This document shows, piece after piece, positions 3,386 through 63,394 of a DNA stretch of 64,000 nucleotides. A program made the translations under genes and the position numbers. The DNA lies in assembly GCA_016748015.1 (NCBI GenBank), contig JAAOMT010000607.1:248001-312000 (forward strand), given 5' to 3'. This DNA is from Geosiphon pyriformis uo1. Lineage: Eukaryota; Fungi; Glomeromycota. Position 1 is the first letter of the stretch. The number at the start of each line of letters is the position of its first letter. The notes beneath the pieces were generated by a model, which made no database searches, was not told where the DNA came from, and saw only the letters and a program-made list of their open reading frames with translations.

Positions 3386-3820
3386 TTGGGCAATACATTA
3401 ATAATGGAAGAAATAGAAATAAGTGAATTAACACCAGACACATTTAGCAACTTGAAAACGAAATTTCCAATTAATTACTGTTATTATCAACTAGAAAAGC
3501 ACTTGAACATACAAATATTATACTCAAAAGACTCAACTAGAGTGTTTAACAAAACAACTATCCAACTATTAGAACCTTTTATTAGAAAAACCAACACTAC
3601 ATTCCATTCAAAAACAGTTTACAGAATTTTCAAAGCATTTGAAAACTGTCACAAATTATTGTTGGACCCAATTATGAACATAATAACAACCAACAATATT
3701 GGACAACTTACCAACTTGCAATTTCAAGAATTACAACAACAAATTAATAACACAGTATTGAACCACTATAGTAACTTAAAATTTAATAAAGAAATTAACT
3801 TCGATTTCGACGGAGCTTAA
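3386..3820 (+). CDS. E1 ORF3 C-terminal part, unknown function
   Basis: FPINYCYYQLEKHLNIQILY...FDGA-stop aligns by eye with ORF3 of E5-E9 and ends next to the PPT. Confidence 0.75.
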   Translation: MGNTLIMEEIEISELTPDTFSNLKTKFPINYCYYQLEKHLNIQILYSKDSTRVFNKTTIQLLEPFIRKTNTTFHSKTVYRIFKAFENCHKLLLDPIMNIITTNNIGQLTNLQFQELQQQINNTVLNHYSNLKFNKEINFDFDGA

Positions 3821-3839: not shown

Positions 3840-4714
3840 TGTTATGGTTTAAGAATTTAGCAAAAAGAATCATAAAAATAATACAAACTATTCAATCATA
3901 ATATAGCACAGTAATAATCTTAGAAAGGTAATGATTAACATAGTAGCAAATACCATTTTGCTATAGTGGCAAGCACTAGTTCACAATAGCAGCCAATACC
4001 AACTGGTAATAGCAGCAAACACCAGGTTGAAATATCAAAAAAAAAGTATTACAATGTGTTTTCTCATAGAACTACAAACATGTATATATACAATAGTTTT
4101 AATATTGAGAAATAATCAATCAAGTAATAAAAATCATAACTTATCAAGCAATAGATCCAATTTTATCTAACAAACTTCACTTTAAATCATACTTTCAAAT
4201 TAAATATCTCAAGAAATCTTTAAATCAAAAAGAAATGAAAAAGAATATTTAAAACTGAATTATCACAACCCAAAGTATTAAGAAACTTACTTGTATTATT
4301 TATTGAATGAAACTATCATTCATCAACTGAATCCCTTGGAAGAATAATCCTTGATCAAGATTATTTACGTTGTTACTAATTGATAAAAGCTTTATTGTAA
4401 GAATTAGAAAAACACTAAAGACCATTAACATTCTGTGTTTCTAGATTAGAGAAACACATCAGACAATTGCAAGGATAGCCTCAGAGAAGACTCCAGACAG
4501 TGGGTAGATTTCAGTTCAGCCTCTGAGAAGGAGTACATAAACACACACAACAATCAAGAATTAAAGAATAACTTATATCACAACAGTAAAAAGAAAGCTT
4601 TCAGTGTAACAGTGACATTATCACACAAATAGAATTGAGGAACTCATGAAAGACTAATTGCAATTAAAACGGAATATCAGCAATTAAATATAACAAGAAA
4701 ACCATCCCATAACA
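3840..4714 (+). repeat. E1 3' LTR
   Basis: TGTTATGG...CCATAACA inverted termini, TATA-like GTATATATA near 4082, and a 23-bp x4 tandem array at 3940-4031. Confidence 0.88.
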
Positions 4715-24148: not shown

Positions 24149-24149
24149 T

Positions 24150-24210: not shown

Positions 24211-27200
24211 GTGGTGACTATTGGAACAATAGAAAAGGACCACTCCTCATATGGAAAAGCACTATTTCAATATTTTCAAAAAGACTTAGGAATATCAGTA
24301 GAAACCACTTATGCAGAATGTGATTTTTGTAACTATATCAATGCAAAAATTGACTGCTTGTTAGGCCGCACAACTGATACAGGAAAACTTGGAGAACAAA
24401 TCTATCAAAGCTTACTAGGGTACTCAACAGCCATGACTACCTGAGCAATTGCTGAAACTCTGCACATAATCGATACAGACATTAAATATTACATGACACA
24501 ACGATTCCCTCAAGTACAACAACCAGTAGAATCCAATCCTAAGGAATACAAAAACGAATCCAACAACCCCATAACTGCTCAAGCCAAGTCCACAGTCAAC
24601 AAGAAACCAAGGGTCCTCTTCCCAACAACTTCATCATACCATCAGACATCCCAAAGTAGAATTGTATTCAATCCACCCCCAGAAACCCAGTTGGAAATAC
24701 CATGAACTCCTGGAAATCCACACCCTTGGAATCAACACAGTTGGACCAAATGACTAGAAGAATATGAATCACTGTTTGGAAATCTTACCCCAGCAGCCAG
24801 TCAAACAAAAGAAAACCCATTAACATGGGAACAGCTACCAGCACAAAACCTAGCAGAATCAGCATCTCCCCTGATGAAAAAAACAGCTATCTTACAATCT
24901 ATTAGTTCAAGCGACAAAAAAAAGCAACCAGCATTAGCACCTGGAGAACACTCAAATGCGCAGACACCAATCTCTTTAAACATAACCAGTAACATCTCAC
25001 CCATTAACCAGATCATGGCTTACTGGGATATCGCTAAATTGGAAAAATTCTCTGGTGAAAAAGATAATGCATATTCTTGGATTGCGAACGCTGAAAAAGC
25101 AATTACTGCTAATGGTTAGAACAATGACTGCACAGTTCAGGCACTGCCATTCTTTCTGACCAGAACTGCCAATTCGTGGTACCAGAGCCTGGCAGAGAAG
25201 CCTACCTCTTTTACCAAGTTTAAACTCGCATTTCTGCAATATTTCTGTGACCTCAATACATTAATCCGATTGCAGAATCAATTCAGCATAATTAAACAAA
25301 AAGATCACGAAGCAGTAACTACTTATCTTGGACAATTCAATCAAATCCTGCATCAAATATTAGCTATCGAAAGGGACTACTACACCATGGTGCAAGTTCT
25401 TAATCAATTTATTAAAGAATTGTGGAGTAGTATTCTAAGATCCATAAGACCCTGCCATCTGACCAGTTTACAAGACGCCGTCACTCTCGCTCGCAATTTT
25501 GAGTCTGCAGAACAAGAAGTGAACCATACCCAAGCCGTTAATTTAGCCATTAATGGAACCTCTGACATCGATGCAAAGATAACCCAATTGAGTAAGAAAC
25601 TAACTCAAAAAATTGAGGGATTCTTAGACAGAACTACAGGAACTTACCAACCACCCCAACAGAGAGAAAATAACAACAACAGCAGATACCCACAGCAACA
25701 GAACTGTCAGCAACAGCAACAACCTTGGAGATCTGATCCCCACAACTGCTACTACTGCCAAAAACCTGGACACATCGCCTGTGACTGCAAAAAGAAGATC
25801 ATGGACCAAAATCAAGGAAACCCATACCAGCAACTCAGATATTAGCAAAACATGGTATCCCAATATTCCATACCTCAGAATCAACCACCCCTATACACAC
25901 AACAAGTTCCATATACTTAACCACCACCCCAGAATTATTATCAACCACCACCAATGACACAAGTAATCCCTCACTATCAAACTTCTCCTTACAGCCCGTC
26001 CAGACTTTGAGCTATAGACTATAATCAAGAATGGAGAAATCCCAACAACAATTAGATGCAAACCAACAGTGGACCATTTTGACCAATTCCTCATAGTCCT
26101 GCCTAATCTTAACTAACACCAACTGGATACCCAAATCAAGCTTCCTATCTCGGTCTTATAGAAGACCAGGGTTTTGATAAATCTACACTTATGGAAAGGG
26201 GGGATATAGAACGAATCTCCCAACCTTCCAAGCAAACAAAAAGCAATATTCCACCAGCCACTATTATTGAAGACACCACCCTAGCTGTCATATTTCCTTT
26301 TGACATCAATAATTTGAACATACATAGCCTTTTTAGTGGAGCAGCCATCAATCAGATAAACTAATAACAGCCCTATACACTGATGTCAAAGTCGGAGGAA
26401 TAGACATTAAATTAATCCTGGATAGTAGATCAGCTGGTAGCAAAATCACGAAGCAGCTCATGAACCAATTAGGTTGCTGAGTAGACCATGCCATTACCGC
26501 CCGAATCATTACAGCGGATGGGAACACAAAAACCCTGATAGGAGAAATTGACAACTTTCCCTTCGAAATTAATGGAATCCAAATCCCTACCAAAGTACTC
26601 GTCATGGAAGCTACTCAATATTAAGCTCTAGTAGAAAACAACTGGTTGTCAAAAGCCAATGCTACTCTCAACTGGAACACCCAAGAACTTCAACTCATAT
26701 TCAATGGACAGCATGCCTGAGTTCCAGCTATGTGCAGACACTTTAAAAACCAACATACCAAAGAACCCTTTATTGAATTCGAAGACACATTAATACCACC
26801 AATCATCAAGACCTATCAGGTTTCATGAGTGGATGATTATTGAACTGAACTACCCCCACCATCAACCTAGAAAGAAAAAGGAAAAGACAGAGCCAAAGAA
26901 GAACCCCAATCGTTATCACTAAGATACGTAACCTCAAACCAAAGAAACTTATTTTACCAACCCCCAAGACTAATATGTGTTGATTGTGGAAAAAAACTAT
27001 CCACTATGGGCGCATGTATCGGGGACAATAAAGAATGGCCCACCACCACCAAATACTATTGCAGGCCTTGTTTACTGGAAAGATTTAAACAACCAAAATG
27101 ACAAGGCAAGTGGGACCACACGCCATGCCTCGCATGTGGCAAAATCCTGCCAGATGAAGAACTCTGGAATGATGTGCCTGGCAGAGGAGAAACATGTGAC

Positions 27201-29980
27201 AAGACTTGTCAATACATCATATTAATCAACAATTGGGTACGAAAGGGAACCCTCATCGAGGATGCTTGGAAACGAGCACTCAACAGGCTAGACAGTTATC
27301 TACACAATGATCACAAAATCTGGAGAATGGCAAGCGCCAAGGCCGAAGGCACCATGCCTGAAGAAATATGAAAAATTAAGGACAACCCTTGAACACCCGA
27401 ATATACTGGACCCAACTATCCCAAGGATGATTTCTTTACAGATGACCCAGATGCATTTCAGAACTGATATTAGGCATTGGCCCCAACTCACAAAGAACAG
27501 GAGCAAAGGTTGGCCAATTTAAATACCAAACTGTGCAATTACTGTTTGATCCTCTGTCACTTCCAGTACTATGACAAATGTGATCTCATGTTCAATCTGC
27601 TTTCAAGAATACTGTTTCCAATCACCAAATTACCTGAGCCTGAAGAAGAGATATTGATCACCAAGAACATGTTGTTTCAAGATCCAACTGAGGATACTAA
27701 AACAGAACAGTATCTCTCGTATCCCAACCTATTCAAAAAATTAAAGCTAAAATAGTACAGTAACAATGAGGAAGGAATCTGCCCCAAAAGAGTGTATGAC
27801 ACCGATGCTGGTTTCGACCTACAATACCCTAGACAATTACCCATCATTATAGTCTCACATTCCCTCGTAAAAATAGATCTTAAGATAGCGTTAGAAATTC
27901 CTGTTAGTACAATGGTACAAGTTGCCTTTCAATCTAGTCTAGCCAAGAAAAAAATCAATGTAAAAGGAGAAATTATCGATGCTGGTTACACAGGAAACAT
28001 CATCATGATGCTACAGAACAATTTGGACAGACCCTACAAAATAGAATCACAAGAAAAGATTGCCCAAGCTATCTTCCTACTCTTAATCAAAATACCCCAA
28101 TTAACTCCAGTAACAACTCGAGAAGAGTTAGGCCTCACTGCCTGAGGAATCAATAGGTTTGGATCAAGTAGAAGAGAAAACGTACCAGTTAATTTCATGG
28201 AGGAAGACAATAATCAGGTAGAATTTATCAACACCGACACTATCATCTCCATTCCTTTATACCGACAATACATTCTTAAGGTGAATCAAAAGATCCAAGA
28301 TCAAGCCCTGTTATTTGAAGCCAGTCCCAAAATCTGTTCCCTAGCTGATGTTGCTAATCTATACCTACCAGCCAAAGCCCATAAACACTTCAAAATTCCC
28401 ATCCACAACCCGACAAAAGATGTCATTAAAATTCCTGAAGGGACCCTCGTTGGTTCCATATCCACAGATATTCAGAATTCTGAAAAACCCCAGTCCATTC
28501 CAGATTTCATACAATTATTCTTATTCTGTGACATTATCTCACAAGTATAAAATTTGCCAAAAGAAAGTTACTTGTTCACACCAGAAGAGATTAATAAATT
28601 GAATTTAGGAAATTTAAGTACTTTGCAACAAATGCAACTCAAAGTTCTTCTGAATCAGTATGCCGATGTCTTTGCCAGCAAAAATGAGTTCGGACACACT
28701 GACATCATGAAGCATCAGATTGATACAGGAGACACTCGACTGATTAAGCAATGAGCTTATCATGTACTCCCATCTGGTGATAACCTAATTAAGCAAGAAG
28801 TGCAATGGATGCTTGATAATGGTCTAATCAAAGAATCGTTAAGCCCTTGGTCACCAAGAAAAACAGAAAAGTGCGATTCTGCATAAATTATCGAAAACTA
28901 AATAGCATCATGCAAGGAGATAGTTATCCCACTTCCCTCATCCAAGAAATTTTGGACAATCTAGAGAAAAAAAAATGGTTTTTATCATTAGATTTAGCAA
29001 GTGGTTACTGGCAAGTTGAAATGGACCCCAAAAACAAAAGAAAAACAGTATTTACCACTCGAGATAGAAACTTTGAGTTTAATATAATGCCTTTTGGACT
29101 TTGTAATGCTCCTGCCACGTTTTAATGCCTGATGGATGTAGTATACAAAAGAATCCTTTGGAAATCAGTAGTAGTCTACCTAGATAACACAAACGTATTC
29201 TCCAAAACATTCGATGACTATCTGCTCCACCTACAACAAGTCTTCGAATGTCTTCGTAGTGCTGGATTGAAACTCAATTCTGAGAAGTGCTTCTTTGGAA
29301 AAACCGAGTTAAAATTCCTAAGACATGTAATTGGCAAGGATGGAGTTAAACCCGATCCAGATAAAGTACAAAAAGTCAAGGATTTTCTAGCCCCAATCAA
29401 CCTCAGAAAATTACGAGGATTTCTAGGATTGTCAGAATATTATCATCAATTTGTCAAAGATTTCTTGAACATTGCAAAACCACTCCATCAATTGTTGTCC
29501 AAATATGTATCATACTTGTGGAAGGAAGATCAACAGAAAACATTCGACTATCTCAAGCAGTGATTGATCATATCTCCAATTCTAATTTATCCAGATTTTA
29601 CTAAATAGTTCATTATCACTACGGACGCCTTGAAAAATACTCTAAGAGCAGTCTTATCACAGATAGGACCAGACAATTGAGAACACCCAGTTGTCTACAC
29701 TAGTTGCAGCACTAACCCAGCAGAAAAAAATTACAGCACAACAGATTTGGAATGTCTCACTATTTATTGGGCTGTACAGACTTGGAAACATTACCTCAGT
29801 CAACCATTTGACTTATATAGTGACCACAAAGGACTTATTTGGTTACTCAACAATCCACAACTAGAAGGAAAATATGCGAGATGGAGTACTTATCTGCAAC
29901 AATTTCCACTTAAAGTCCATTATAAGGAAGGATCCAAGAACACCAATGCCGACAGTTTGTTGAGGATGCCACAAACCTAA
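24211..29980 (+). pseudogene. E6 gag-pol polyprotein (capsid, CCHC, protease, Cys-rich region, dUTPase, RT, RNase H)
   Basis: CYYCQKPGHIACDC; LILDSRSAG (aspartic protease); AGFDL / IIDAGYTG / KIAQAI; LDLASGYWQ, YLDN; NTNADSLLRMPQT-stop. Confidence 0.92.
27786..28170 (+). pseudogene. dUTPase domain within E6 pol
   Basis: All five dUTPase motifs are recognisable: DAGFDL, QSSLAKK, IIDAGYTG, EKIAQ, GINRFGSS. Confidence 0.88.
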
Positions 29981-29990
29981 TCCCAGACCT

Positions 29991-31356
29991 ATGGACACAC
30001 TCACTTATCAATGACTACATCAGTACCTATCAACACTATGTTTTAAGGAGATATTATCTCAACAGAAACAGAGTACCATACAAAAACAAGCCTGAAATTA
30101 TTTTATTCAAGACAATTAACTATATTGACAAGAATACCAAAACCACTCCAACCCACAATGACTAATCAAGGACAGTGAAAAAGAAACTATATTATATAGC
30201 ATGCACTCAAATCCAACTGCAGAACACTTTAACAAAGATACTACCCTCGAAAGAACACTAAACTTATACTATTGGCCAACAATATACAAAGACATTTTCG
30301 AATACATGCTCAATTGTGACACATGCCAGCGAAGAGAAGAAGCAAGATCAACAGAACCACTTCAACTCATTCCAGTTGAAAATTCATTTGATAAAATTGG
30401 GATCAATTTGGTTGGACTTTTTTCAATTACATCCTAAGGAAATTGCTATATTGCTGTAGCTGTAGACTATCTTACAAAATGGCCAAAAGAGAGCAATCCA
30501 AGTGGCCGACGCCAAAACAGTAGCTGAATTTGTGCATCAAGATCTAATTTGCTGACATAGATGTCCGAAAGAATTATTATCTGATCAGAAAACACATTTC
30601 ATTAATAATATGCTGACTGAATTAAGCCAATGGTTTGGAATAAAGAGACCCTTATCATCACCATACCACCCACAAATGAATGGACTGGTAGAATGATTTA
30701 ACAGAACACTGTGCAAAGCACTAGCAAAAATAAGTCATAAAAACAGACAAAAATAGGACTTATTCATACCTTCTGTACTCTTTGCATACTGAACATTGAA
30801 ACAAAATATGACTCAGTTCACACCATTCGGACTAGTCTATGGAAAAAAAACTACATTACCAATTGAACAAGTGATACTGTCATACCCAACAGAAACAATC
30901 AATGAAAAGAATTTTGAAGCTACCTTATACCAAAGAACGTACCAGCTAATGGAAACATTGGAAAACAATCGAAGAACAGCAGCTGACAATATTAGTCATG
31001 CTCAAGAACAACAAAAAGAAAGACATAATAAACACCTATCAGAACAACCAATGGAATTCAAGATTGGAGACCAAGTACTGCTATATTGTACAAAAGCTGA
31101 AAAACAGTGGAATGGAAAGTTCGACCCAAAGTGGGATGGTCTATTCCACATACATGAAGTGTTAAGAAATAGAGCTTACAAATTATAATTGGAAGACAGA
31201 ATTTTAAAGAAAGTAGCACATGGAAATCAATTAAAAATTTATCATGTAAAACAGGAATCATCATGATTAGTACCTCAACTAGAAACACAAATTTTATTAA
31301 TCAGACCAGAAGATATACCACGAGATCTGGAACCAATCATTGTCATCAAAATGTAG
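29991..31356 (+). pseudogene. E6 integrase (separate ORF)
   Basis: ATG 10 nt after the RNase H stop, in a different frame; HHCC, DDE core and WDGLF motifs; stop at 31354-31356. Confidence 0.88.
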
Positions 31357-31436
31357 ACAATGGGCAGCAAATTAAATTGGGGAATTCAAATATATATAGC
31401 ATCTGAAAAGCAGCAAGAAACAATAGAAATTTCAAC

Positions 31437-32171
31437 ATGGACCTTTCAGATCAAATTTTAAAATTATCTAAACAATTATTTGAAACAATTCAAAAATTGA
31501 CATCTCAAATAGAAATAACAATTGATAAAAAAGAGATATGATACAAAGATAAGAGCAGGAGAGGGGAGAATGAGAGTTCAATTAGAACTAAATGTTCCTT
31601 CTCCTACCCATTACCCGAAAGGCAATGTTGGAGGAAAAATTGCTTTCATGTGGGAGGTGAAAAAGAAGGAGACAAAGAATGAGAAAAAGGTTACAAAAGA
31701 AGATACTTGGTCTCCGAGCTCAAAGAAATAAAAGAAGCTTTAGCTCATGAGACTAAACTCTCTGAAACAGGAGAGTGGACACCTAACAACACCCAGAAAT
31801 GGAAAAAAAGACTTCCTCCAGCTTATTGGTTCTACAAAATTGGAGAACAGCTTGACTTAAAAACACCATATGAAAACCTCAGCCAGAAAATATTCAACAA
31901 AGAAGCAATACAACAAGTAGAAAAATTTGTAGGGAAAAACAACCTGACTCTATATTATAAAGCAGCATACTGACTATATGCCGCCTTTCAACATTGCCCA
32001 AATGTACTACTGAACGGATCTATGAAAACCATAATGGTTAACAACATAGGACGAATAACCAATCAACAGTTCAAAGACCTACAAAAGGCAATACTCGAGG
32101 CAACAATCAAACATTACATGAACAAAGCCACGATAACAGATACATACAGTTTCACAGGAGCTCAATTTTAA
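31437..32171 (+). pseudogene. E6 ORF3 (about 244 codons), unknown function
   Basis: MDLSDQILKLSKQLF...LPPAYWFYKIGEQL...FTGAQF-stop in one frame with a few nonsense codons; the stop overlaps the PPT. Confidence 0.78.
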
Positions 32172-32185
32172 AAAGAGAGGGATAA

Positions 32186-33290
32186 TGTTACCTAAGTAGA
32201 AAAACTGATCCAAAGTTATGAAGAAACATGACCAAAATGTGACATAACACAGAATAACACGCAATAACGTTGGATAATACGTTATAATGTAGGATAACGT
32301 GTTATAACACAGGATAATACAAAATAGTGCGCAATAACATAGGATAACATGTTATAATGCAGAATAATGTGTTATAATGCAGGATAACACAGAATAACAT
32401 GTAATAACATCAGATAATGTGTTATAACATAGAATAACTAGCAATAACATAAAAAAATGAAGCAATAACAGAAACAACAAAGCAATAGCTAGCGATAGCA
32501 AAACAATTGAAAGCAATCCTGTAAAACCAAAAGAATGTATAAAAGCAAGTAGTTGTAGAAGTGAAAAAAGACAGACAGATAGATACGAATCTCTAGACAA
32601 GAATTAAATATCCATACTCCTTCATTCTTTATTATCTTCCCTATTTCATTTTCTGAAATAAAACCAATTATTAAAAGAAATCAGAATTACAAATTCATGT
32701 TCTCGAACTTCGTGGAATTTACGTGAATTAACTCTTGTCTTGTATCTTTGTTCTAAGACAGATGCTTTTAGCATAACTACCTTGAACCTATTAATAATTT
32801 AGACCAATTGCTCTTGATCACAGCTATTGACAATACTAATTTATTTTTTCTCTCTTTTTTTTTCTTTTTTTTTTTTTTTTTTTTTTTTTTTTCTGTCTTA
32901 TTTTTGTGAAGTGGCAACATAGTAAAATTGACTGTCTGGGAATAAACTTCGTAATAGCCTGGTAAAAGAGGGAAGCTCTCCCTAAGTTTTGGATATTAAC
33001 ATTATCTTGTTAGCTTACCAGAAGGGCAAAAAAACAATGCCAGACCCTAATGACTGTACTCGTTAGCTTAGAAAAGAAAGCTCATATTTACAAAAAACAT
33101 TGCAATCGATGAAAGACAAACTCTGTGCCTTATAACCAAAGAACTCAATAGATAAATTCACATCCAGGAATAGACTTTCAGAGACTGATAATCAAGACTA
33201 AGCCAACAGAATTACAGGGAAGACGCATTATCAATAATTGAGAGCACCAAACGTTACCATTTCCCATATCCACCAAGTTTACCCATAACA
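32186..33290 (+). repeat. E6 LTR-C (3' LTR)
   Basis: Preceded by the PPT AAAAAGAGAGGGATAA; no PBS follows; the E5 LTR resumes after it. Confidence 0.92.
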
Positions 33291-36200
33291 TTGTATATTA
33301 ATTAATTAAGGATTAAGTGCTGAATTATTGATGTTATGGATAGCCTGGTAAAAGACCCAGAGATAAGAGTAAAATATTATATATATTAATGGATAGCTTA
33401 CCAGAAAGGCATGACTGCCAGAATAAACCAGCCATCACACTGAAGACAAAAATTGGGAAAACAACTCACCAACCAACCACATTGTCATTGAATCTCTGTT
33501 TATTATACAAAAGACTCAACCAAACTTTCAGACACAAAACCTTTAGATTACCAACAATATTATCAGTATATTAATTGAGTATCAAGTTATGGGTTTGTTA
33601 TTTATTCTAATATCAAAAATAATTATCTGTAACATTTGGTGCTTTCTGTAAGGTATAATCCTACAGAGAATCAGCACCAACAGCAATTATCCAAAAGTAA
33701 CAGAACCAGAAAGAATAGGAACAAATCATTTAAGATTCACGAAATTCTTATTTTAATACTACTGTTAATATTTGGAATTAACCAACAATCATTTGTTAAC
33801 AGAATCAGCCTTCAACTTCTACATCAACAAAAAAATTTCATATTTGTTAGGAGTACCAATAGAAACCAATACAGTAAGAGAAAACTTTTACAATGAATTA
33901 ATTCAAAACACTAGCCTATTAGCAAATTATAATTTTACAGCAATCCTTACTGAAATCAACAAAGAAATTGAAATTTACACTTAGCAAAGATACCCAATTA
34001 CTTATGCAAACAAAAACAAGGGTAAACTACAAACACCAGCAGTAACATCTTAAAGAATACAACCACCCACTTGAAAGAAAACAAGAGTTGAATTACTAAC
34101 TAATCTATCATACCACTACATACCCAGAAGTGTTATCAACATTACATCAACAGATACATCCACATCAAATATGACATCAACATTCAGATGACTCCTATTC
34201 CAAAGTAAACAAAAAAAAGCAGAATTATTAGGAACTTATAGCGAATATTTTAAGGGATTTAATTCACAATTGCCCATGCCATTAGGATTTTGATCACTAC
34301 CACTTCCACCAGATTTCAGAACCATGAGTTCTTAGGAGGTAATGAAATCTGAGGAAGAAGAAGATGAGGATTGAGAGTTTAACTATCAAAATCTGATCCC
34401 AAAAAATTTAGAAACACAAACTCTGATCATTTAAACTCAGCAAAATCAGAACAATCCAAACTCTAATAATATTAATCAACAAAATTAGAACAATCTAAAC
34501 CCCAACATTAATAACCAACAACACTTATCTTTGGCAATCATTATTAACCCACTAAAACAACTACTGCCACAACCTCAAATCCAGTTACCACTTCAATAAC
34601 AACAACAAAACTTAGATCCAATGGCCTACACTTCAATAGCAAGACTTAAGAAATTCATCAGTAAAAAGAATGATGTCCAAGTATGGCTCAATAACATGAA
34701 AAAAGCCATCATGGCTAATAGATGGAATAACACCAAAGCCATGCAAGTCATCTCATATTTTCTCCAAAATACTGCCAATTCATGGTACCAAAGCCTGGTC
34801 AACAAATCTCAAGATTTCAATGCATTTAAACTTAAGTTCTTGAGATATTTCAGTAATAATAACAGCATTAACAGGCTGGCAAACACTTTTACTACCATTA
34901 AACAAAGAGAAACTGAAGCAGTCACTACTTACTTAGAATGCTTCCACAAAAATCTGTGCCAGATCCAAGCCATTAACACCAATTATTTTACAGTGGCCCA
35001 AATTCTAAATCAGTTTATTCAGAGATTATGCAGTAACATCTTGCAATACATATGTCTAATGCATCTTGTCGATTTGCAAGCAGCCATTACAAATGCCAGA
35101 GATTTTGAAGCAGCTGAATTAGAAGCCAATCATGTCTAAGCAGTAAATCTAGTAATAAACAGATTATTTAACTTGGATTCCAAATTGAAGCAATTCAGTG
35201 AATCAAACAATCAGAAATTAGAGAAATACTTAGCTAACAACAATCAAGCAATCTATCAACCTTCATAGCAATGCAATAATCAGGGAAACTTTAATCATTT
35301 CCAAAATCAATCATGTCTATTATTATCAACCAATCAACAGTGGCAACAGAAAACACATGTTTGCCACTATTGTGGTAAACAAAAACACCTACAATTGACT
35401 GCCACCATTGCTTAAATAACCAATAATCAAGAAATCAATATCAAAACTCTGATTGCTGGTTTCAAACTCCAAATAACCCACCAAACTCAGAACCATATTA
35501 TCAGAATTACTTGCCAATAATACAGCAGCCAATTTATCAAACACCTGTATATTAATCTCCAATCTATTAACTGCAGCTACAAGTAATATATCAACTGCAA
35601 CCACTAGTAATTTATCAACCCCAACAACTTCAAACACTATTACCAAACCCAGCTCAGATAACATCAAAAAATTTCAGATCAAGAGTTACTCAAAACTGGA
35701 GATCAGTGATGGTTGTTCATTAACTGATTCCCAGTTCCTTTTACCATCCAACAGGATTACATTCTCAGAATTCGGAAACTGGGCACACCCAAAACCCAAA
35801 TTCCTAACACTATTTAAGTCTTCTGGTTATCTCAGAAGACATTCCATCCAATAACATTGTTATTCACAAAAGAAAAACAGATATAGAAAAATAATAGACC
35901 AATAAGAAATAGGAGTTAACATGTAAGCACATTGCTTAAGAAATCATAGCACATTGCTTGGAAATATGAACAATCTTATAAAACATAAATTTGGTATATA
36001 TAGTGGTAGCATTAGAAGAGAAAAAGACAGATCTCTCTATTTAGATTTAATCTAAGCAACCTTCTCCATCACAAATATTAATAAATAACTATTTGTTATC
36101 TCAATCTATTCTCCACTATCAACATTTCATGTTGATAGTAATTGATACTTAATTACACTGGAACAATTGCTCTTTATCATGACTATTGACGGAATACTAA

Positions 36201-36657
36201 CTTGCAAATTATTTAGCTTATTTTTTTAATTTTTTTAATTTTTTTTCTTTATTTTCTTTTTTTTTTGATATTTTGTTATTATGTATTAATTGATTAAAAA
36301 TAAAGTGCCAAATTACTAATATCAAGGATTGCCTGGTAAAAAACCTCTACAAATAGGTAGAACATGTAAAAAAATTACAGATTACTTATCAAAAGATTGC
36401 TGGTTATCAAGTTGAAAAAAGAAATTAACAGAATTGCGATTCTGAGAAGCTATAGATAACAACACTATTGAATCTTTGTTCATTATACAAAGAACTTAAT
36501 CAAAACCTTCAGATTATTATCAATGCAAATAGCTTTTAAGCACCAAGTTACTGGTTTGTTATTTGACTTGAAACCCCAAATAATTACTTGTAACATTTAA
36601 TGCTTTCTGTAAGGTATAATCCTACAGAAAACCAGCACCAACAATAATTATCCAAAA

Positions 36658-39600
36658 GTGGCAAAACCAGAAAACATAGAAGCAAATCATTTAGGATTTG
36701 CCAAATTCTTGTTTCAACAGTACAGCCAACAATTAGGATTAAACAATAACCATTTCTCAGTAAAATCATCTTTCAATTTCTATGTCAATAATAAAATCAC
36801 AGACTGCTTAAGAGGAACAGTTAACATCGAATCAGCAAGAAAAAACTTTTATACAGAATTATTTCAACACATTAGCTTACCAAGAAACCACAGTTTCACA
36901 CCAATTATTAAGGAAATTAACTAAACTATTGAAAGATACTTTCAACAACAATTTCCTATCATTTATGCAGACAAATGCAAAGAAAGATTACAAACACCAG
37001 CAGTAATGCCTAAAAAAATACAACTACCAACTTGCAAGAAACAAAAAATCAAATCCTCACCATATTCATTATATTATCACATCTTCAGAAGCATGATCAA
37101 TATTTTATCAGCAGGCGTGTCCACATCAAATGCTACATCAATCTTTGGATAATTCCTATTTCAAAGTAAACAAAAAAAAGCAGAATTATTAAGACCATAT
37201 GGCGAATATTTTGAAGAATTTAAATCATGATCACCAACACTATCAGAATATCAATCACTACCATCTTAACCTGATTTTGGAATTTCTAACCTGTAGGAAG
37301 TAACCAAATCAGAAAAAAAAGAAGAAGATCAGGAATTTACTTACCAAAATCTGATCTCAGAAAACCCAGACATTGAAACTCTAAGCTTTCAAACACAGCA
37401 AGATCTAAATTTAGAAAATCCAAAAATTAGAACTTCGAATATTCAAACACTGTCAAATCAGAACAATCAAAATCTCGATTTAATTAATTAATAACACATA
37501 CCTCCAGAAATCATTCAACTAATTGAACCAATTGGCCAACCACTACAACAACCAAATCAGCAAATCTAACAGCCACCAGTACCATTTTAACAACTCCAAC
37601 AGCTGCTTTAATAGCCACAACAACCTCAATAGCCACTACAACAACCATTAAACTTGAATTTAATGGCCTATGCTCCAATTACCAAACTTGAGAAATTTAC
37701 TGGCAAAAAAGACAATGCCCAAGCATAGATTAATAATGTCACAAAAGCTATCACCACTAATAATTGGGATAATGTTAGAGCACTTTAAGCAATCTCATAC
37801 TTCTTACAAGACATCACTGATTCTTGGTATCAAAGCTTGATCAACAAACCTGTCACCTTTGACACATTTAAAACAGAGTTTTTGAGATACTTTAGCAACA
37901 ATAATAATATCAATTGCCTGGCCAACACTTTTATTACCATGAAACAAGGGGAAACTGAAACAGTCACTACATACCTAAGATGCTTTCATAGAAACTTGTG
38001 TCAAATTCAGACAATTCAAGCAGATTATTTTACAGTACCACAGATTCTAAACCAATTTATTAGAGGTTTGTACAGTAACATTCTCCAATGCATACACCCA
38101 TTACACCCAGTAGACCTCCAAGCTACAGTTAACAATGCCAGAGATTTTGAAGCTGCTGAACTTAAAGCAAACCACACCCAAGCCATTAATCTAGTGATGA
38201 ATAGATCATTTGAATTGGATTCTAAATTGAAACAATTCAGTGATTTAATCAACCAGAAATTAGAAGAATACATAGTTAACAATTGCACAATTTATTAGCC
38301 ATCACAACAATGCAATAATTTAGGAAATATGATTTGTTTCCAAAATCAGTCATGTCTACTATCATCATCAAGTCAGCCATGGCAGCCTGAGATGCATGTC
38401 TGCCACAACTGTGATAAACAAAGCCATATCTGAGTTAACTGTCATTCTTATAGTAACTCACAATTAAGAAATCATTACAGAAACCCTGATTGCAGATTTC
38501 AGATTCTGAACTATCATCCAAATCAAGATCAATATCAACCCACTTACCTGCCAATAATACAGTAACCAATATATCAACCACTAGTATATGTACCTCCAAG
38601 CTATCAACTACAGCCACCAGCAATTTATCAACCACAGCCCTAAGCAATCTATCAACCACAGTCACCAGTAATTTATTAACCTCAACTAATTCAAACACAA
38701 CTCCAAAACCCAGCTCAAATGACATTAGGCAATTCAAGATCCAGAATCACTTAAAACTGGAGATTGGCAATAGTTGTTTACCAACCAATTTCCAGCTTTT
38801 TGCACCAATCAACAGAATCATAGTTGTGAAATTCAGGAACTGGATCCACCCAAAATCCAAATTTCCAACACTATTTAAGTCTCTTGGTTATTTCAGAAGA
38901 CGTTTAATTCCACAACCTGGGATCCAATCAACAATTTATACTTATCAACAACATCCCACCAGCAACCATCATGAAAAACGAGTTACTTGCCACTATATTT
39001 CCCTTTGAAATTGACAAATTTTCAGAAGTCTTATTGTTCAGTAAAGCTGCCCTCAAAGAGAAACCCATAACTGCGATATATACTGATGCCAAAATTGATA
39101 GTCAGTTCATCAAACTAATTCTAGATAGTGGATCAGCTGGCAGCATCATTATCAAGCAACTCATGGATCAATTAGGTCACTGAGTTGACTGCACTGCCAG
39201 TGTCAGAATCATTACAGCTAATGGAACAACAAAAACTCCTATTGGTGAAATAGACGACTTCTCTATTGAAGTCAACAGCATTACAGTACCAATCAAAGTT
39301 TGGGTTATGGAAGCTATTCAGTACTAAGCTCTTGTTGGTAATGACTAGCTGTTCAAAACAAATGCAATGCTTAACTGAACTACATAAGAGTTGCAAATTA
39401 GTCAGAATGGCCAACACACATGAATACCAGCAATGTGCAGCCACTTTAAACCCAGCACTGCAATATGGCCACTTATTCACTTTAAAAAAGAGAAAAAAAA
39501 ACCTACCTGGAAAGCATATCAAGTATTATGGGCCAAAGACAACTACAACAAACTACCACTCATACTATTCTGGGATGACAACAGCAAATGAAAACAGAAA

Positions 39601-45761: not shown

Positions 45762-46398
45762 ATAGAAATATCAGACTATATTCACACTTTAGCTCAACAA
45801 TTGTTTTAGGCTTTAAGTTAACAGCAAACAAACATGGAAATTATTATCAACAACCAAACAATCTGTTATTGAAACACCAAACAAAAAGAAAAAAATACAC
45901 CATATCAGTAATCACAGAAACAATCAATAAACTGGTCAGATAAAATAGTAGAGAAAGTAAAAAACACTTTTGGAAAGATAACTATCACAGTTCCAACAAA
46001 AGAACTAGTAAAAGAAAATTGAAATCAATGGTTAGACCAACTTCCAATACCATACTGTTACTACCAATTGGAACGAAAAATAGATATTTAGAAATTATAT
46101 CTTGACAAAACCAAGAAAATCTTCAATCAAGAGATAATCTGGAACATTGAAGACATTATTAGAAAGAAAACGAACTTAACATTATACATTAAAACCATGT
46201 ATTGACTACACACTATATTTCAGAACTACCCAGAAGTATTGTTACATTTTGGATATGGAAACAATAATTATCAATCAATAGGGAAGAATGAACAACTTTC
46301 AAATTGAAAAAATAAAAAATAGAGTAGAACAGATACTACTTAAAAAAGAAGTATTTGACATAATTCAAAATGAAGATTTCAACAGAGTTCAATATTAA
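45762..46398 (+). pseudogene. E7 ORF3
   Basis: LPIPYCYYQL...DFNRVQY-stop at the PPT; homologous to E9 ORF3. Confidence 0.72.
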
Positions 46399-49300
46399 AA
46401 AGAGGAAATAATGTTACTTACAAAAAGAAAACAGATATAGAAAAATAGTAGACCAATAAGAAATAGAAGTTAGCATGTGAGCACATTGCTCAGCAATGTA
46501 AAGCAATATAAGAAATTATGGCACATTGCTTAGCAATGTGAAGCAATATTAGAAAATTACAGCATATTGCTTAGCAATGTGAGCATTGCTTAAGAAATCA
46601 TAGCACATTGCTCGAAAATATGAGCAATCTTGTAGAACATAAATTAGGTATATATAGTGGTAGTATTAGAAGAAAAAAAGACAGACCTTTTCATTTAGAT
46701 TTAATCTAAGCAATTTTCTCCATTACAAATATTAATAAATAACTATTTGTTATCTCAATCTATTCTCTGCTATTAACACTTCATGTTGATAGTAATTGAT
46801 ACTTAACTACACTGGAACAATAGCTCTTGATCATGGCTATTGATGGAATATTAACTTGCAAATTGCTTTGGCCTATTTTTTTATTTCTTTTATTTTTTTT
46901 TATTTCTTGATATTTTGTTGTTGTATACTAATTAATTAAAAATAAAGCACCAAATTACTGACATCAAGAATTGTCTGGTAAAAAATCTCTGTGAGTGAAT
47001 AGAACATGTAAAAGGAATTATGGATTACTTACCAGAGAATTGCCAGCCATCAAGCTAAAAAAAGAAATTGACAGAATTGCGATTCTGAAAAGCTATAGAT
47101 AACAACACTATTGAATCTTTGTTTATTATACAAAGGACTCAATCAAAACTTTCAGATCACAAAACCTTTAGATTATCATCAATGCAAATAGCTTTTGAGC
47201 ACCAAGTTACTAGTTTGTTATTTGACTTGAGACTCCAAATAATTACTTGTAACAACATGGGAACCAACTAAATACAGCCACTTACCAGCAATATTCTTCC
47301 AGCCGTCAGTACCAAAGACAAATTACTAGCCGCTATATTCCCTTTTGATCTTGATAAAATTAATACCAACTGATTACAGCCATGTATACCAATATTAAAG
47401 TCGATGATCAATCTATCAAGTTTATCCTTGATAGTGGGTCAGCAGACAGCATAATCACATAACAATTCATGGACCAATTAAGTTGCTAAGTTGATCATGC
47501 TGTCAGCACCAGAATTATTATGACTGATGAAGCTACAAAGACTCCCATTGGTGAGATTGATGACTTCCCTTTTGAAGTCAATGGCATTACTACAATTAAA
47601 GTCTTAGTAATAGAAGCCACTTAATACCAAGTACTTATTGATAATGATTGGCTGTCCAAAACAAATGCAACTCTTGATTGAACCACTCAGGAACTTCAAC
47701 TCAGTTAAAATGGATGACACACCTGAGTACCAGCAATCTGTGGCCATTTTAAATCCAGTACCATGCCAATCACTCCACTAATCAAATTTAAAGAAGAAGT
47801 AAGCAAACCTTTTTGGGAAGCCTATCAAGTCTCATGGACTGATGAGGACCACAATGAGTTACCACCAATACTCTCATAGGACAACCAAAAAAAAGAAAAG
47901 CACACAGAAAAACTTACCTGGAGAACTGACCAAAACATGTGAATTAACAACAACCAAAGTGAAATACTACCAATTCTAGACTGGAAAGAAAAAGACAAAG
48001 GAAAAAAAAAAAAGGAAGGAAGACATACCTAAAGAAACCAATGACATCACAGAAACTAGTAGTTGGAGAAGTACATACTTAACAGATACCAGACCAGAAC
48101 CATCTTATATTTCTCTTAGATGTAAAGACTGCAAGAAGAAACTTTCTTCCATAAGAGCTTGGATCACATCAGATAAAGATTACTGAACACAAACCCACTA
48201 CTATTGTAAGCTGTGCCACAGAAAACAGTATGACTACCCAAAATGACAAGACAAGTGGGACAATAAACCATGTCTCACTTGTGATGAACAATTGCTCGAC
48301 GAGAGAATGTGAAACAACATTTCTGGTTGAGGAAAAACATGTAATGCTTTGTGCCAGTACATAATTCTCATCAGTGACTGGGTGAGTCATGGTATGCCAA
48401 TAATTGCTGCCTAGCACTGAGCAATCTTTCACTTGGACAGTTACTTACATGATAAGAACAAGATCTGGTGGATGGTGAATGCCAAAGTAGAAGATTCCAT
48501 GTTCAGCAAAATATTGGAAATCAAGAACAACTCTCCAAAACCAGTCAATATTGTTTTGATTCCCAACTCAGACGTTTTCCTGGACCTTAAAGCAGGTCCA
48601 GAAGAATTCCATGAGCACTACCAAAATTTGGCACCAACAAGAAAGAAACAAAAATAGTATTTGGCCCAAATAAACATCCAACTATGTGACCACTGTTTAA
48701 TTCCATGTGACTTTCAATATTGTAATAAGTGTGATCTTATTTACAATCCACCACCATGTATGATCTATATAATCCCAGAAGAAAAAGAACCAATCAGCAG
48801 CTATGCATTAGAATTGGATTTGGATTTTAATACTAATTCAAACTCTGAAAACAATAATGACAAAAACACCAGTTCCAGCTCCACTCAATATGGCAATGAA
48901 AATAACAATAATTTGAACTCCAATTCAAACTCCAAAACATTTATTGTGCTTTTTGATCTCACCAAAGAGCAAGAATTTAAATGGTTCAGTGATAATAATA
49001 AAGATATCATGTTGGAATGTGCACATAATACTGATGCAGGGTTTGATCTAAGATATCCAAAGAAGAATGCCATCAAACTGGAATCATATTTGCATATTTG
49101 CATTAATCTTAAAATAGCACTGAAAATTCCAGTGACCACCATGGTTCAACTAGTATTCAAAAGTAGTTTAGTGAAAAAAAAAATCAACATCAGAGGAAAA
49201 ATAATAGATGCAGAATACATAGAAAATATTATTACAATACTACAAAATGACTCAGAAAAAGCCTATATTATAGAGCCAAATAAAAAGATAGCATAGGCAA

Positions 49301-52728: not shown

Positions 52729-53367
52729 ATGGAAATTACTGACAACATTTACTCACTAGCACAACAACTTTTCCAATTGATTCAATAACAAGAAATAAAA
52801 ATCACAATCAATCAACAAACCATTAGATACACAAACACCAGAAAAAAACCACAGGATAAAGTACAGAAAAAAACAGAAAACACTGTTAACAAAATAATCG
52901 CAAAAGTAAAATTGGCAATAAAAGCACAACCAAAAGTCACTCAATATCAAGAGTTGACTATAAAAACTTGGAATTGGTAAATACAACAATTTCCAAAAAA
53001 CTTTTATTACTTTTACTTGGGACAACACTTGAACATTCAGAATCTATACATGGATAAAACAAAACAATTATTTGACACAACAATACTACAACAACTGGAA
53101 CAATTTGTGAGGAAGAACAATTTAATCACACAAGCAAGAACCATTTATCAGCTACATACCAAATTTCAAGATCGACTAGAAATCTTGCTCAACACAGAAA
53201 TAGACACTGTTACTGTCAACCAAATAGGAAAAATAACCAATGCCTAATTTGAAAAATTACAGAACAAGATAATACAAGTAATTCTCAAAAAAAAAGTTCA
53301 AGAAATACTCAAAAATAAAGAATTAGAGTTAGAAGATTTAGGAGATCTTGACAGAGCTTAATATTAA
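52729..53367 (+). pseudogene. E5 ORF3
   Basis: MEITDNIYSLAQQLF...LGQHLNIQNLY in one frame, ending at the PPT. Confidence 0.75.
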
Positions 53368-53380: not shown

Positions 53381-54256
53381 TGTTACTCATAGAATATAAG
53401 AAATATATTAGCATATAAATTAGCCAATCAGAAGTAGACATAGTAAATATGAAATTCCAGAATTCCTTTTATAAGAATTGCAAGATTTCAAGAATTTCAA
53501 GATTCTCATATGAGAAATTACAGGATACCAGAATTCCAGAATTCCTTTCAAAGAAATTGCAAGATTCCAAGGATTCTGGAATTCCTGGTGTGAAGAATCA
53601 AGAAATTGAGAAATCTCAATTATGTATATATAGTAGTAGCATTAGAAGTAAAAAAGACAGATCTCTTAGTTTAGATATAATCTAAGCAACCTTCCAAATC
53701 ACAAATATTAATAAATAACTATTTGCTATCTTAATCCACTCTCCACTATCAACACTTTATGTTGATAGTAATCTATATTTAACCACACTAAAACAATAAC
53801 TCTTGATCACAGCTATTAACAAGATACTAACTTGTAAATTGCCTTGGCTTATTTTTTTACTCCTTTTATTTTTTTTTTTTCTTTATTTTTTTTTTATTTT
53901 TTTATTTTATTGTCATATACTAATTGATTAAAGATTAAGTGCTGAATTATTAATGTTACAGATAGTCTAGTAAAAGACCCAGAGATAAGAGTAAAATATT
54001 ATATATATTAATGGATAGGTTACCAGAAGAACATGACTGCCAGAATAAACTGGCCACTATACTGAAGACAAAAATTGGGAAAACCATTCACCAACCAACC
54101 ACATCATTATTAAATCTCTGTCTATTATATAAAAGACCCAACCAAATCTTTAGACACAAAATTTTCAGATTACCAACAACATTATCAGTATATCAATTGA
54201 ACACCAAGCTACAGGTTTGTTATTTATTCTAATACCAGAAATAATCATCTGTAACA
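53381..54256 (+). repeat. E5 3' LTR
   Basis: Uninterrupted match to 20503-20993 plus 33295-33634. Confidence 0.92.
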
Positions 54257-59008: not shown

Positions 59009-60391
59009 ATAAATATACAAAAATACCAACAACTTCAACATTATATAAATACCCAATTGTTCAAAAAGAAATTATCTCAAAAAGAACAAAGAAACATAAA
59101 ACAACAATCAAAATATTTTATCAATCATCAAAATATACTTTACTAAAAGAACAGAAGAAATTCAGATCAACCAACCAGAGTAATTACAGAACCAAAGAAA
59201 AAGACAATATTATTTAACATGCACTCAGATCCAACAGCAGGACATTTTTATAAAGAAGCAACCATGAAAAGAACTAGAAAAAGATATTATTGGCCATTAA
59301 TGTATCCAGATATTATCTAATATGTTCAAAATTGTGATGCTTGTTAGAGAAGAGGTGGAACAAAAACCAGTGAACCATTGAGGCCAATCAAAGTGGGACA
59401 ACCATTCAACCACATTGGAATTAATTTAGTTGAACCATTAACAATCACTAGCAGAGACAACAGATATATTGCAGTAATCATGGATTATCTCACAAAATGG
59501 CCAGAAGCAAAAGCCATTCAAAGAGCAGATACAGAATCTGTTGCCAAATTCGTTCATCAAGATTTGATTTGTCAACATGGATGTCTAAAAAAACTACTAT
59601 CAGATCAAAGAACTCATTTTGTGAACAAAACATTGACAGAATTAAGTCAAAGATTTGGAATCAAAAGACTATTGTCATCACCATACCATCCACAAACCAA
59701 TGGATTAGTAGAAAAATTCAATAAAACACTGTGTGAAGCAATTGCCAAGATCAGTCAAAAAAACCAGAACAAATGGGATTTGTTCATATCATTAGTATTA
59801 TTTGCTTATTGGACAATGAAGCAAAACACTACACAAGCAACACTATTTGAATTAGTATATGGTAGAACAGCAACATTACCAGTTAAGATAGAAGTTAATA
59901 TTTATCTAGTAGAACCAATAACTGAAGATAATTTTCAGAAAACATTGCTAAGAAGAACATATGACTTGATGAAAACTCTAGAAAACAAGTGACGAAGAAC
60001 AGCCAATAACATTCAGAAGTCACAAGAAAAACCAAAAAAAAGACATGATAACCAACTATCAGATAAACCAGTTGAATTCAAGATTGAAAACAAAGTACTG
60101 TTACATCATACCAAAGCAGAAAAACAATGGAGTGGAAAATTTGACTCCACATGGGACAGACCATTTCACATAGAAGAAATTCTTGGAAATAGAGCTTATA
60201 AATTAAAATAAGACAACAAAATTTTAGCCAAAGCAGCACATGGTGATTGACTGAAACTATATCACCAGATAGTATCATCATCCACCAATAACATTTCACA
60301 ACTGGGAGTACAAAAAATAATAGTTCAACCAGATGAGATTCCACAAGATCTGGAACTAATCATAGTTATTGAACCAAACATGTCAAATTGA
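59009..60391 (+). pseudogene. E9 integrase (separate ORF)
   Basis: ORF 59378-59992 contains the DDE core with SSPYHPQTNGLVE; follows the RH stop at 58974-58976. Confidence 0.88.
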
Positions 60392-60445
60392 ACAACCAAA
60401 AGAGTATATAAAGACACAGTACATGTGACAAAAGCAACCAAGAAA

Positions 60446-61081
60446 ATGGAAATACCAGATCATATTCATACTATAGCTCAACAATTGTTCCAGGCCTTAA
60501 ATCAACAACAGTTAAACATGGAAATTGTTATTAACACCCAAATAATTTGCTATTGAAACATCAAAAGAAAGACAAAGAATACACTATATCAGTGACCACC
60601 AAAGAATGATAAAAACTGAACAGATAACTTAATAAAAAAAGTAAAAACCACTTTTGAGAAAAAATCTATTATGACACTAACAGAAGAGCTTACAAAAAAA
60701 AATTGGAAGCAATGGACAAAACAACTTCTAATATCATATTGCTACTACCAGTTAGGTCAAAAGTTGAATATTCAGGAATTGTATATCAACAAATCTAAAA
60801 GAATATTCAACCAAGACATAATACAACAAATTGAAGAATTTATCAAAAAGAAAACAAATTCAATACTACATGTTAAAACAATGTACCGACTACACAACAT
60901 ATTTCAGAATTATTCAGAAATACTGTTACACTCTGACATGGAAACCATAACCATTAACCAATGGAAAAGAATAAACAATACACAAGTAGAAAACATGAGG
61001 AACAGAGTCAAACAAACAATACTTAAAAAAGAAGTATTAGAATTAATTCAAAACAAAGATTTCAATGGAGCTCAATATTAA
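60446..61081 (+). pseudogene. E9 ORF3
   Basis: MEIPDHIHTIAQQLF...SYCYYQLGQKLNIQELY...DFNGAQY-stop. Confidence 0.8.
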
Positions 61082-62755
61082 AAGAGAGGAGATAATGTTA
61101 CTCATAAAAAGAAAACAGATATAGAAAATAGTAGACCAATAAGTAAGTAGTTAGCATGTAAACACATTGTTCAGCAATATGGAGCAATATCAGAAATTAT
61201 GGCACATTGCTCAGCAATATGGAGCAATGTCAGAAATCATAGCACATCACTCAGCAATATGGAGCAATGTTAAGAAGATATGACACATTGCTCAGCAATG
61301 TGAGCATTGCTTGGGAAATTATAGCACATCACTCAAGAATATGAGCGATTTTATAGAACCCAAATTATGTATATATAGTAGTAGTGCTAGAAGTAGAAAA
61401 AACAGAATCCATCAGTTAAAAACCTTTCACATTACAAATATCAATAAATAATTATTCACTATCTCAATTCACTTTCCACTATTAATACTTCATGTTGATA
61501 GTAATAGATACTTAACCACACTGGAACAATAGCTCTTGATTATGGCTATTAACAGAATACTAACTTGCAATTGCTTTTGTTTATTTTTTTATTTTTTATT
61601 TTATTTCTTTTTGTTATTTCTTTGGTTTTACTAAATTGATTAAGGATTAAGCACTGAGATACAGACGTTATAAAAACTGGTAAAAAACCCATGAAACAAG
61701 GATAGAACACTCATAGATTTGAGGATAGCTTATCAGGAGAATTACTGGCCACCATGCTAAGAAAGAAATTTGACAGAATTGTGATTCCAGGAGGCTACTA
61801 AAAACAACTATTAAATCTCTGTCCATTATACAAAAAACTCCACAACAAAACCTTCAGAACAACCAAAACCTTCAGATATCAACACCAGAGTACCAACCAA
61901 GCACCAAGTTACAGATTTGTTATTTAACTTGAGACCCTAAATAAACATCTGTAACAATAATCTGAAGGTTTTGGTTGAGTTTTTTGTATAATGAACAGAG
62001 ATTCAATAGTGTTTTAGTAGCCTTCCAGAATTGCAATTCTATTGAATTTTTTTCTTAGCATAGTGGCCAATAATCTAGCAAAAATGTTCTTTTGGTAAGC
62101 TATCCTTAAATTTTCAAGTCTATACCCTTCCTTTGAGGTCTTTTACCAGGCTATCCTTGATGTCAATAATTTAGTGCTTGATCCTCAATCAATTAGTAAA
62201 CAACAATAAAATCAAAGAAAAGAAAAGAAAAGAAAATAAAATAAAATAAAATAAAATAAAATAAAATAAATAAAGAAAATAAGCCAATACAATTGTAGAT
62301 TAGTATTTCATCAATAGTTGTAATTAAGAACTATTGTTTCAGTGTGGTTAAATATCAATTACTATTAACATGAAGTGTTAATAGTGGAGAGTATATTTGA
62401 AATAGTGAATAATTATTTATTAATTTAGAAGGTTGCTTAAATTAAATCTAAACAAGAAGGTCTGTTTTTTCTATTTCTAATACTACCACTATATATACAT
62501 AATTGAGATTCCTTAATTCCTTAATTTTTCACACCAGAAATCCTGGAATTCTTGGAATTCTGCAATTCTTTTAAGGGGAATTCTGGAATTCCGGAATCCT
62601 GTAATTCCTCATATAAGAATTCTGAAATTCTTGGAATCCTGCAATTCCTCTTAGAGAAATTCTGGAATTCCACATTTTACTATGTCTATTTCTGATTGGC
62701 TAATTTATATGCTAATATATTTTTTATATTCTATGAATAACATTATTCCCTCTTT

Positions 62756-63394
62756 TTAATATTGAGCTCTGTCGAAATCTTTTAAATCTTCTAACTTTAA
62801 TTTTCTATCTTTGAGTATTTCTTGAACTTCTTTTTTGAGAATTACTTGTGTTATTTTGTTTTGTAATTCTTCAAATTAGGCATTGGTTATTTTTCTCATT
62901 TGGTTAATAGTAACAATGTTCATTCCTGTGTTGAGTAAAATTTCTGGTTAATCTTGAAATTCAGTGTGTAGCCAATAAATAGTTCTTGTTTGTGTGGTCA
63001 AATTTTTTTTCCCCACAAATTGTTCTAATTGTTGCAATATTGTTGTGTCAAATAATTGTTTTGTTTTATCTGTATATAAATTCTGAATGTTTAAGTATTG
63101 TCCCAAGTAAAAGTAACAAAAGTTTTTTGAAAATTGTTGTATTTATCAATTCCAGGTTTTTATAGTCAACTCTTAATATTGGGTGACTTTTGGTTGTACT
63201 TCTATTGCCAATTTCACTTTTGTAATTATTTTGTCAACAATGTTTTCTGTTTTTCTCCGTACTTTATCTTGTGAACTCTTTTTGTTATTTGTGTATCCAA
63301 TAGTTTGTTGATTGATTGTAATTTCTATCTTTTGTTGTTGAATTAATTGACAGAGTTGTTGTGCTAGTAAGTGAATCTTGTCAGTAATTTCCAT
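62756..63394 (-). pseudogene. E8 ORF3
   Basis: MEITDKIHLLAQQLCQL...AQY-stop; close homolog of E5 ORF3. Confidence 0.75.

Follow-up and report, generated by a model that had tools for sequence, protein, structure and literature searches.

A selected third gene in Ty3/Gypsy elements of Geosiphon pyriformis co-segregates with a palindromic U3 array that it may regulate

Downstream of integrase, dUTPase-bearing Ty3/Gypsy elements of Geosiphon pyriformis carry a third open reading frame (ORF3) which is a real, selected and previously undescribed accessory gene family. What is new here is that an ORF3 type and its own palindromic U3 array have been swapped as one block across a shared integrase family. 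We read this pattern, with a probability of roughly 0.4 and guided by analogy with other mobile elements, as pointing to a type-specific U3-binding protein that would activate or de-silence elements of its own type.

All coordinates refer to the window, the whole 64-kb stretch of DNA that was analyzed. Mapping with Pfam and tblastn resolved it into a nest of decayed elements with gag, dUTPase, reverse transcriptase (RT), RNase H and integrase. The RT-RNase H-integrase order together with a Ty3-type gag places them in Ty3/Gypsy, and TG...CA long terminal repeats (LTRs), a polypurine tract (PPT) and a target-site duplication identify them as LTR retrotransposons. All four complete elements show 4-bp target duplications, two exact and two with transitions: E5 (20503-54256, plus strand; its 5' LTR, from 20503, is split by E6), the E6 block (20994-33290, plus strand, nested in the E5 5' LTR), E7 (35858-47254, nested in E5) and E9 (54399-61956). 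Within E6, a broken stretch encoding dUTPase, RT and RNase H (27756..29980) is followed by a likewise broken integrase in its own ORF past the RNase H stop (29991..31356), by ORF3, by a PPT that overlaps the ORF3 stop codon (32170..32182) and by the 3' LTR (32186..33290), all on the plus strand; the 5' LTR starts at 23063, an extra tandem LTR at 20994, and the 4-bp duplication reads TCGT/TTGT. The 5' end of this element (20994-24150) is thus arranged as a tandem LTR-leader-LTR, and the target duplication brackets the entire block. A 1.37-kb insertion in the E7 RT/RNase H region (42523-43889), which has TG...CA ends, a duplication of CCAC and a TATA-like box on the minus strand, is probably a solo LTR of another family, and a decayed GC-richer element at 9291-15629, with RT and RNase H matches and a weak RRM match, is probably a non-LTR retrotransposon.

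RNase H terminates in a stop codon, and integrase forms a separate ORF downstream, in 6/6 elements examined. The regions of the RNase H stop and integrase start lie at 2001-2060, 29960-30000, 44240-44350, 51200-51300 and 58940-59050 in the window and at 760-800 in L001, a metagenome locus on an unrelated contig; in E1, E6 and L001 integrase can be seen to have an ATG of its own. To our knowledge, a separate integrase ORF is unusual for Ty3/Gypsy elements, and a literature search judged by titles returned no matching case.

An earlier note on this DNA had proposed six homologous ORFs between integrase and PPT. A tblastn search recovered all six at the positions proposed and no seventh in the window at E<0.4. 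ORF3 is present in 6/6 window elements that have an integrase 3' end, always following integrase in sense orientation with its stop codon overlapping the PPT. The motifs described for its N-terminus and core are present. The homologues thus stand as proposed, but not as intact ORFs: none of the six copies is unbroken, and that they are dead had been overlooked. The copies represent four types with 28-42% amino acid identity between types. Type A is found in E9 (60446..61081, plus strand; 211 codons, 3 stops) and E7 (45762..46398, plus strand; a frameshift, stops, and ATA replacing ATG), type B in E5 (52729..53367, plus strand; 212 codons, 4 stops) and E8 (62756..63394, minus strand; 212 codons, 5 stops), type C in E6 (31437..32171, plus strand; 244 codons, 3 internal stops) and type D in E1 (3386..3820, plus strand; an open 3' part, with the 5' part missing at the assembly gap 3357-3376). 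Five copies hold 0-5 stops in the ORF3 frame versus 8-20 in each of the five other frames, and in these the frame is far more open than chance; the exception is the frameshifted E7, with 12 stops. The type C linker (31540-31720) is about 33 residues longer and is also open in its +1 frame, which gene callers often pick in other copies.

At the C-terminus, a GAQY/F-stop had been described as lying at the PPT. Its position is confirmed; its standing as a family-wide protein motif is not. The DNA around the ORF3 stop and the PPT is conserved in all types, and of 222 proteins collected, 78 have a GAQY-type ending, and in 10 a different frame of this DNA is translated and continues into the LTR. 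This alternate-frame readthrough of conserved DNA argues that the motif most likely reflects conservation of the PPT as a cis-element.

Decay across the window is almost entirely C-to-T and G-to-A, in every context, with CpG highest in one LTR pair; CpG observed/expected is 0.19. Transitions outnumber transversions by 104 to 3 and by 72 to 4 in two LTR pairs. Since decay is almost all transitions, the plain dN/dS check that had been proposed is misleading here, and NG86 ratios (0.26-0.34 within types) were dropped as evidence; non-coding LTR pairs give similar ratios (pN/pS 0.36-0.88). Once the transition bias is removed, the purifying selection that had been claimed is borne out by a transversion-only comparison of 4-fold and 0-fold sites, and the near-neutral divergence between families (dN/dS near 1) that would have spoken against it is not what is observed. 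Transversions in the ORF3 frame are more frequent at 4-fold than at 0-fold sites in four of seven pairs (p 2e-6 to 0.015), with 15/28 versus 52/358 in E5-E9 (type B versus A; p=6e-6), 15/26 versus 53/357 in E8-E9, 5/29 versus 17/393 in E9-E7 (p=0.012) and 6/12 versus 43/238 in E1-E9 (p=0.015). The excess is not significant in E1-E6 (p=0.055) and E6-E8 (p=0.31), and E5-E8 has no power in this test. Among non-coding LTR controls, 0/12 frame tests fell below 0.05; the antisense frame that shares third positions returned a weaker echo of the signal, as it did in integrase. Each of the five indels between the E5 and E9 ORF3s has a length divisible by three; indels of other lengths do occur in the remaining three cross-type alignments.

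A homologue search returned at least 164 annotated relatives of ORF3, and all 120 homologues among the matches listed (of 164) are from Geosiphon pyriformis. A profile search yielded 109 representatives, of which 8 of the 10 looked up were again from Geosiphon. Open full-length relatives occur among the Geosiphon gene models for types A (P0006), B (P0010) and C (P0013), at least one further type is present in this fungus (P0184, P0194), and the model P0112, compared by eye, repeats stretches of E6. Many G9A89 gene models are ORF3 fragments fused to integrase or other sequence; these probably arise from spurious introns and would inflate the Geosiphon gene count. Metagenomes added at least two copies among the matches listed (592 candidates): L001 carries an open 230-codon ORF3 past RT-RNase H and integrase, running into the PPT and about 30% identical to the window types, and L002 a second copy that is cut off. 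In hhalign, the window types match the metagenome proteins over their whole length (99.1%, 190 columns). With P0169 as the query, the best Atlas match was a Mucoromycota cluster of 98 members without a name (score 0.94, with recognition below the threshold), which may be the ORF3 family itself or a wider host family; P0010 gave no usable match. Searches of phages and plasmids by tblastn returned chance matches only. No paper on ORF3 was found in the literature searched, mostly openly readable texts, and a repeat-library annotation of it may exist.

These data bear on whether ORF3 could be a captured gene, or something left over from a different mobile element, of no further use to the retrotransposon. 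That explanation would account for the damage in each of the six window copies and for a nearest Atlas cluster that may be a wider host family; yet pol in these elements is no less damaged than ORF3, selection is frame-specific, the E5-E9 indels preserve the frame in 5/5 cases, and L001 carries an open full-length copy in the corresponding position, at an identity of about 30%. We therefore regard a captured remnant as very unlikely and the idea as largely refuted.

An AlphaFold2 model of P0169 (mean pLDDT 75.8) shows a helical core at residues 81-200 (block pLDDT 83-95) and a weaker helix-hairpin N-terminus, and the model of P0006 has a like outline (mean pLDDT 65.7). ORF3 is thus predicted to consist of a helical core of about 130 residues plus a small helix-plus-hairpin N-terminal part. 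The proteins are 209-244 aa long. The pI is basic, at 9.3-9.7, in types A, B and C, and the L001 protein is acidic overall (pI 5.4); residues 121-150 carry a net positive charge in 7/7 full-length proteins, and the C-terminal ends are acidic in most natural copies.

The family had been described as unrecognised, and so it stays: Pfam, PDB and fold searches linked it to none of the accessory domains described for Gypsy elements, and the Chromo family is absent from the Pfam matches listed, in line with the claim that there is no chromodomain. The AlphaFold/Foldseek comparison suggested in the earlier note was run and gave no Foldseek match at E<=0.001 in PDB or BFVD, and searches of PDB sequences, PHROGs and NCBIfam yielded nothing credible. 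As the fold searches used two whole-length models (best VIA Z 4.0, 5.6 and 4.8, no DNA-binding fold recognised), they leave the fold unplaced, from which newness does not follow. Two leads were rejected. DUF1016_N (the YhcG N-terminal domain) matched one of six proteins at E=0.037, with 14.6 bits against a cut-off of 32.8, and reached an hhalign probability of 0.2% against 74 YhcG homologues; DUF3102 is absent from the Pfam matches listed, and no members were retrieved from five genomes.

ORF3 occupies the position of env, oriented in sense and placed between pol and the 3' LTR (PMC7264820), which would suit an env-like or cell-to-cell spread protein. We find this barely credible. The highest 19-residue hydropathy is 0.27-1.29 in 8/8 proteins, so that no hydrophobic segment exceeds 1.29, no hydrophobic N-terminal stretch was seen in the proteins inspected, and a length of 209-244 aa comes without any viral fold match; the earlier judgement that ORF3 has no transmembrane (TM) segment and is not env-like is upheld on these grounds.

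What the earlier note had overlooked is that ORF3 travels with the U3 array. E5, E7, E8 and E9 share one integrase family, with 83-86% nucleotide identity and transversions of 0.013-0.029 in all six pairs (integrase 3' half) and 72-75% identity at the amino acid level. Their TATA-R-U5 parts are 75-81% identical in all six pairs, and gag and RT of E5, E7 and E9 show no A/B grouping. Between these regions, a sharply bounded block of about 970 bp, which begins at the integrase stop and finishes just short of the LTR TATA box, splits E5 and E8 from E7 and E9. In E9 coordinates it spans 60390..61362 (plus strand) and comprises a spacer with a TATA-like box, ORF3, the PPT and the U3 array, with the LTR TATA box at 61,368. 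Informative sites group A versus B at 180/194 positions inside the block and at 29/97 outside (Fisher p=5e-29), and trees of ORF3 pair E7 with E9 (97) and E5 with E8 (100), which the integrase tree does not. At 4-fold sites, transversions amount to 0.54-0.58 between ORF3 types versus 0.09 in integrase; the block therefore has an older genealogy, and not merely a faster protein. The same border is found in DNA reads, where 29 records join E9 at 61,363 to upstream letters resembling the type B end. Separately, the integrase stretches compared in E7 (44376-45630), E5 (51346-52600) and E9 (59060-60314) are closer to one another (transversions 0.014-0.023) than are gag (0.06-0.08) or RT (0.045-0.056); integrase may be a recently shared module or merely more constrained.

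ORF3 type matches U3 array type in 6/6 window elements, of which only the four A/B elements are informative. In types A, B and C the U3 array is palindromic and reaches as far as the TATA box. In the type A array of E9 (61163..61358, plus strand), a 40-41 bp unit contains the 19-bp palindrome CACATTGCT-N-AGCAATGTG, and the corresponding array of the E7 3' LTR lies at 46480..46612 (plus strand). The type B array is GAATTCC-rich; in the E8 3' LTR it occupies 62539..62670 (minus strand) with a 40-bp unit, and it is also present in the E5 3' LTR, which spans 53381..54256 (plus strand). ATAAC-N2-GTTAT palindromes make up the type C array of E6 (32244..32487, plus strand), upstream of an LTR TATA box near 32538. 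Palindrome counts are reached by at most 4/60 shuffles in 8 of 13 LTR starts, an excess that is clear or borderline. The excess is absent from the E1 U3, where 34/60 shuffles reach the count, and from four older A/B LTRs (8-28/60); the E1 3' LTR start (3840..4090, plus strand) bears a weaker, different repeat upstream of a TATA box at 4081, with palindromes not above shuffles.

The A versus B comparison samples a single divergence event in four copies. During reverse transcription, R-U5 comes from the other template, so ORF3 and U3 can be transferred together without selection in one switch at the integrase end; a single template switch could produce the whole block by itself, linking its parts passively. 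ORF3 might then be a general accessory protein (one that assists particle, RNA or integrase, or that suppresses silencing non-specifically) tied to U3 by adjacency only, with the arrays bound by host factors, and we take this possibility seriously. Tandem U3 motifs can be host transcription-factor sites, the block is explained by one crossover at the end of integrase, the fold searches found no DNA-binding fold, and the 3' half is modular anyway, given the RNase H stop before integrase in 6/6 elements. However, a protein that assists conserved partners would have no need to differ as far as 40% identity between types with one integrase family (72-75% aa), and no A/B crossover was seen at the conserved PPT in 4/4 elements.

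The start of ORF3 also bears on the choice between a helper and a regulator. TATAWA is found 39-46 nt upstream of the ORF3 start in 5/5 copies with a readable 5' end (E5-E9, three types), compared with 72/2064 background windows; in E6 the TATA-like box, a candidate internal promoter, lies at 31391..31398 (plus strand), 44-46 nt upstream of the ATG of ORF3. In L001, where the spacer is about 390 bp long, TATAWA is found only at -126. No type-specific (cognate) array motif stands beside the ORF3 TATA box in the window copies examined. A candidate internal promoter without array motifs is compatible with a general helper, and it weakens the case for a feedback loop as in foamy-virus Tas.

Under the activator or anti-silencer reading that we prefer, ORF3 would be transcribed from the candidate internal promoter, and its protein would enter the nucleus and bind the DNA of its own U3 array, probably as a dimer because the sites are palindromic. 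Binding would raise LTR transcription or de-silence elements of the same type, and selection would keep ORF3 and array together as lock and key while template switching exchanges gag-pol-int backbones. An anti-silencing role would have a target, since the window is CpG-depleted and, in a study of a related fungus, DNA methylation and small RNAs act at transposons (bioRxiv 10.1101/2021.03.30.436303). More tentatively, a Ty3/Gypsy lineage might encode a complete sequence-specific transcription switch, with a new helical DNA-binding family, an internal promoter and a palindromic U3 operator forming a lock-and-key cassette that would evolve and recombine as a unit across shared gag-pol-int backbones, a fungal parallel to foamy-virus Tas and plant VANC. 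In favour of the regulatory reading stand the co-segregation of ORF3 and array types, the palindromic arrays ahead of the LTR TATA box, the TATA-like box before ORF3, the confidently modelled core, the basic character of types A, B and C with the positive charge at residues 121-150, and the precedents of VANC and Tas. Several observations weaken it: the fold searches recognised no DNA-binding fold (best VIA Z 5.6), crossing over is favoured in the conserved integrase compared with ORF3s that are 62% identical, E1 and the four older A/B LTRs are not palindrome-rich, and the L001 protein is acidic, with its TATAWA only at -126.

The same co-segregation and palindrome data would be expected if ORF3 bound its own U3 array but repressed it, for copy-number control or same-type exclusion, and sequence cannot give the sign of regulation. 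We consider repression improbable. LTR elements account for 41.2% of the Geosiphon pyriformis genome (PMC11952901), and this share, together with at least 164 annotated ORF3 relatives, fits a promoter of spread better; the acidic C-terminal ends of most natural copies are a weak hint of an activation domain.

If ORF3 acts as a sequence-specific activator or anti-silencer, part of the reason for the LTR expansion to this 41.2% could lie in it, and it would represent a new family of DNA-binding proteins whose target sites are defined. Should it not be a regulator, it remains an undescribed, selected accessory family. For deciding its function, the natural recombinants offer protein types and DNA types that match (A, B and C).

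Among known systems, dUTPase-bearing Gypsy elements occur in other fungi. The E elements resemble them in the order of gag, dUTPase, RT, RNase H and integrase and in LTRs with 4-bp duplications, and differ in having a separate integrase ORF and a third gene downstream. Judged by position, retention and selection, ORF3 belongs with the sense additional ORFs that follow pol and precede the 3' LTR, whose functions in LTR retrotransposons are mostly unknown (PMC7264820). It shares with them position, orientation, presence in most copies, lack of a database match and an unassigned function; however, those ORFs are mostly env-like with TM segments and come from plants and insects, whereas ORF3 is fungal and predicted to be soluble, and that review describes no case of co-segregation with a U3 array. 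Foamy-virus Tas is a protein of 209-308 aa that has an internal promoter and acts on U3 (PMC3798896). Like ORF3 it is small, poorly conserved and encoded near the 3' LTR, although the internal promoter is only a candidate in ORF3. Tas belongs to a retrovirus and ORF3 to Ty3/Gypsy elements, no sequence or fold similarity between them was found in Pfam, PDB or BFVD, and the response element that Tas-type systems have in common between internal promoter and U3 is absent at the candidate internal promoter of ORF3. VANC proteins of Arabidopsis VANDAL transposons target tandem repeats that differ between related transposons (PMC5735166); like ORF3, they are element-encoded, diverge faster than the catalytic enzyme and go with type-specific tandem repeats. 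ORF3 types A, B and C each go with an array of their own, which is a candidate target. VANDAL elements are DNA transposons and VANC carries DUF1985/DUF287, whereas neither domain is among the Pfam matches listed for ORF3, and the ORF3 arrays are palindromic and lie in U3. By analogy, ORF3 would work like Tas or VANC while being a member of neither family.
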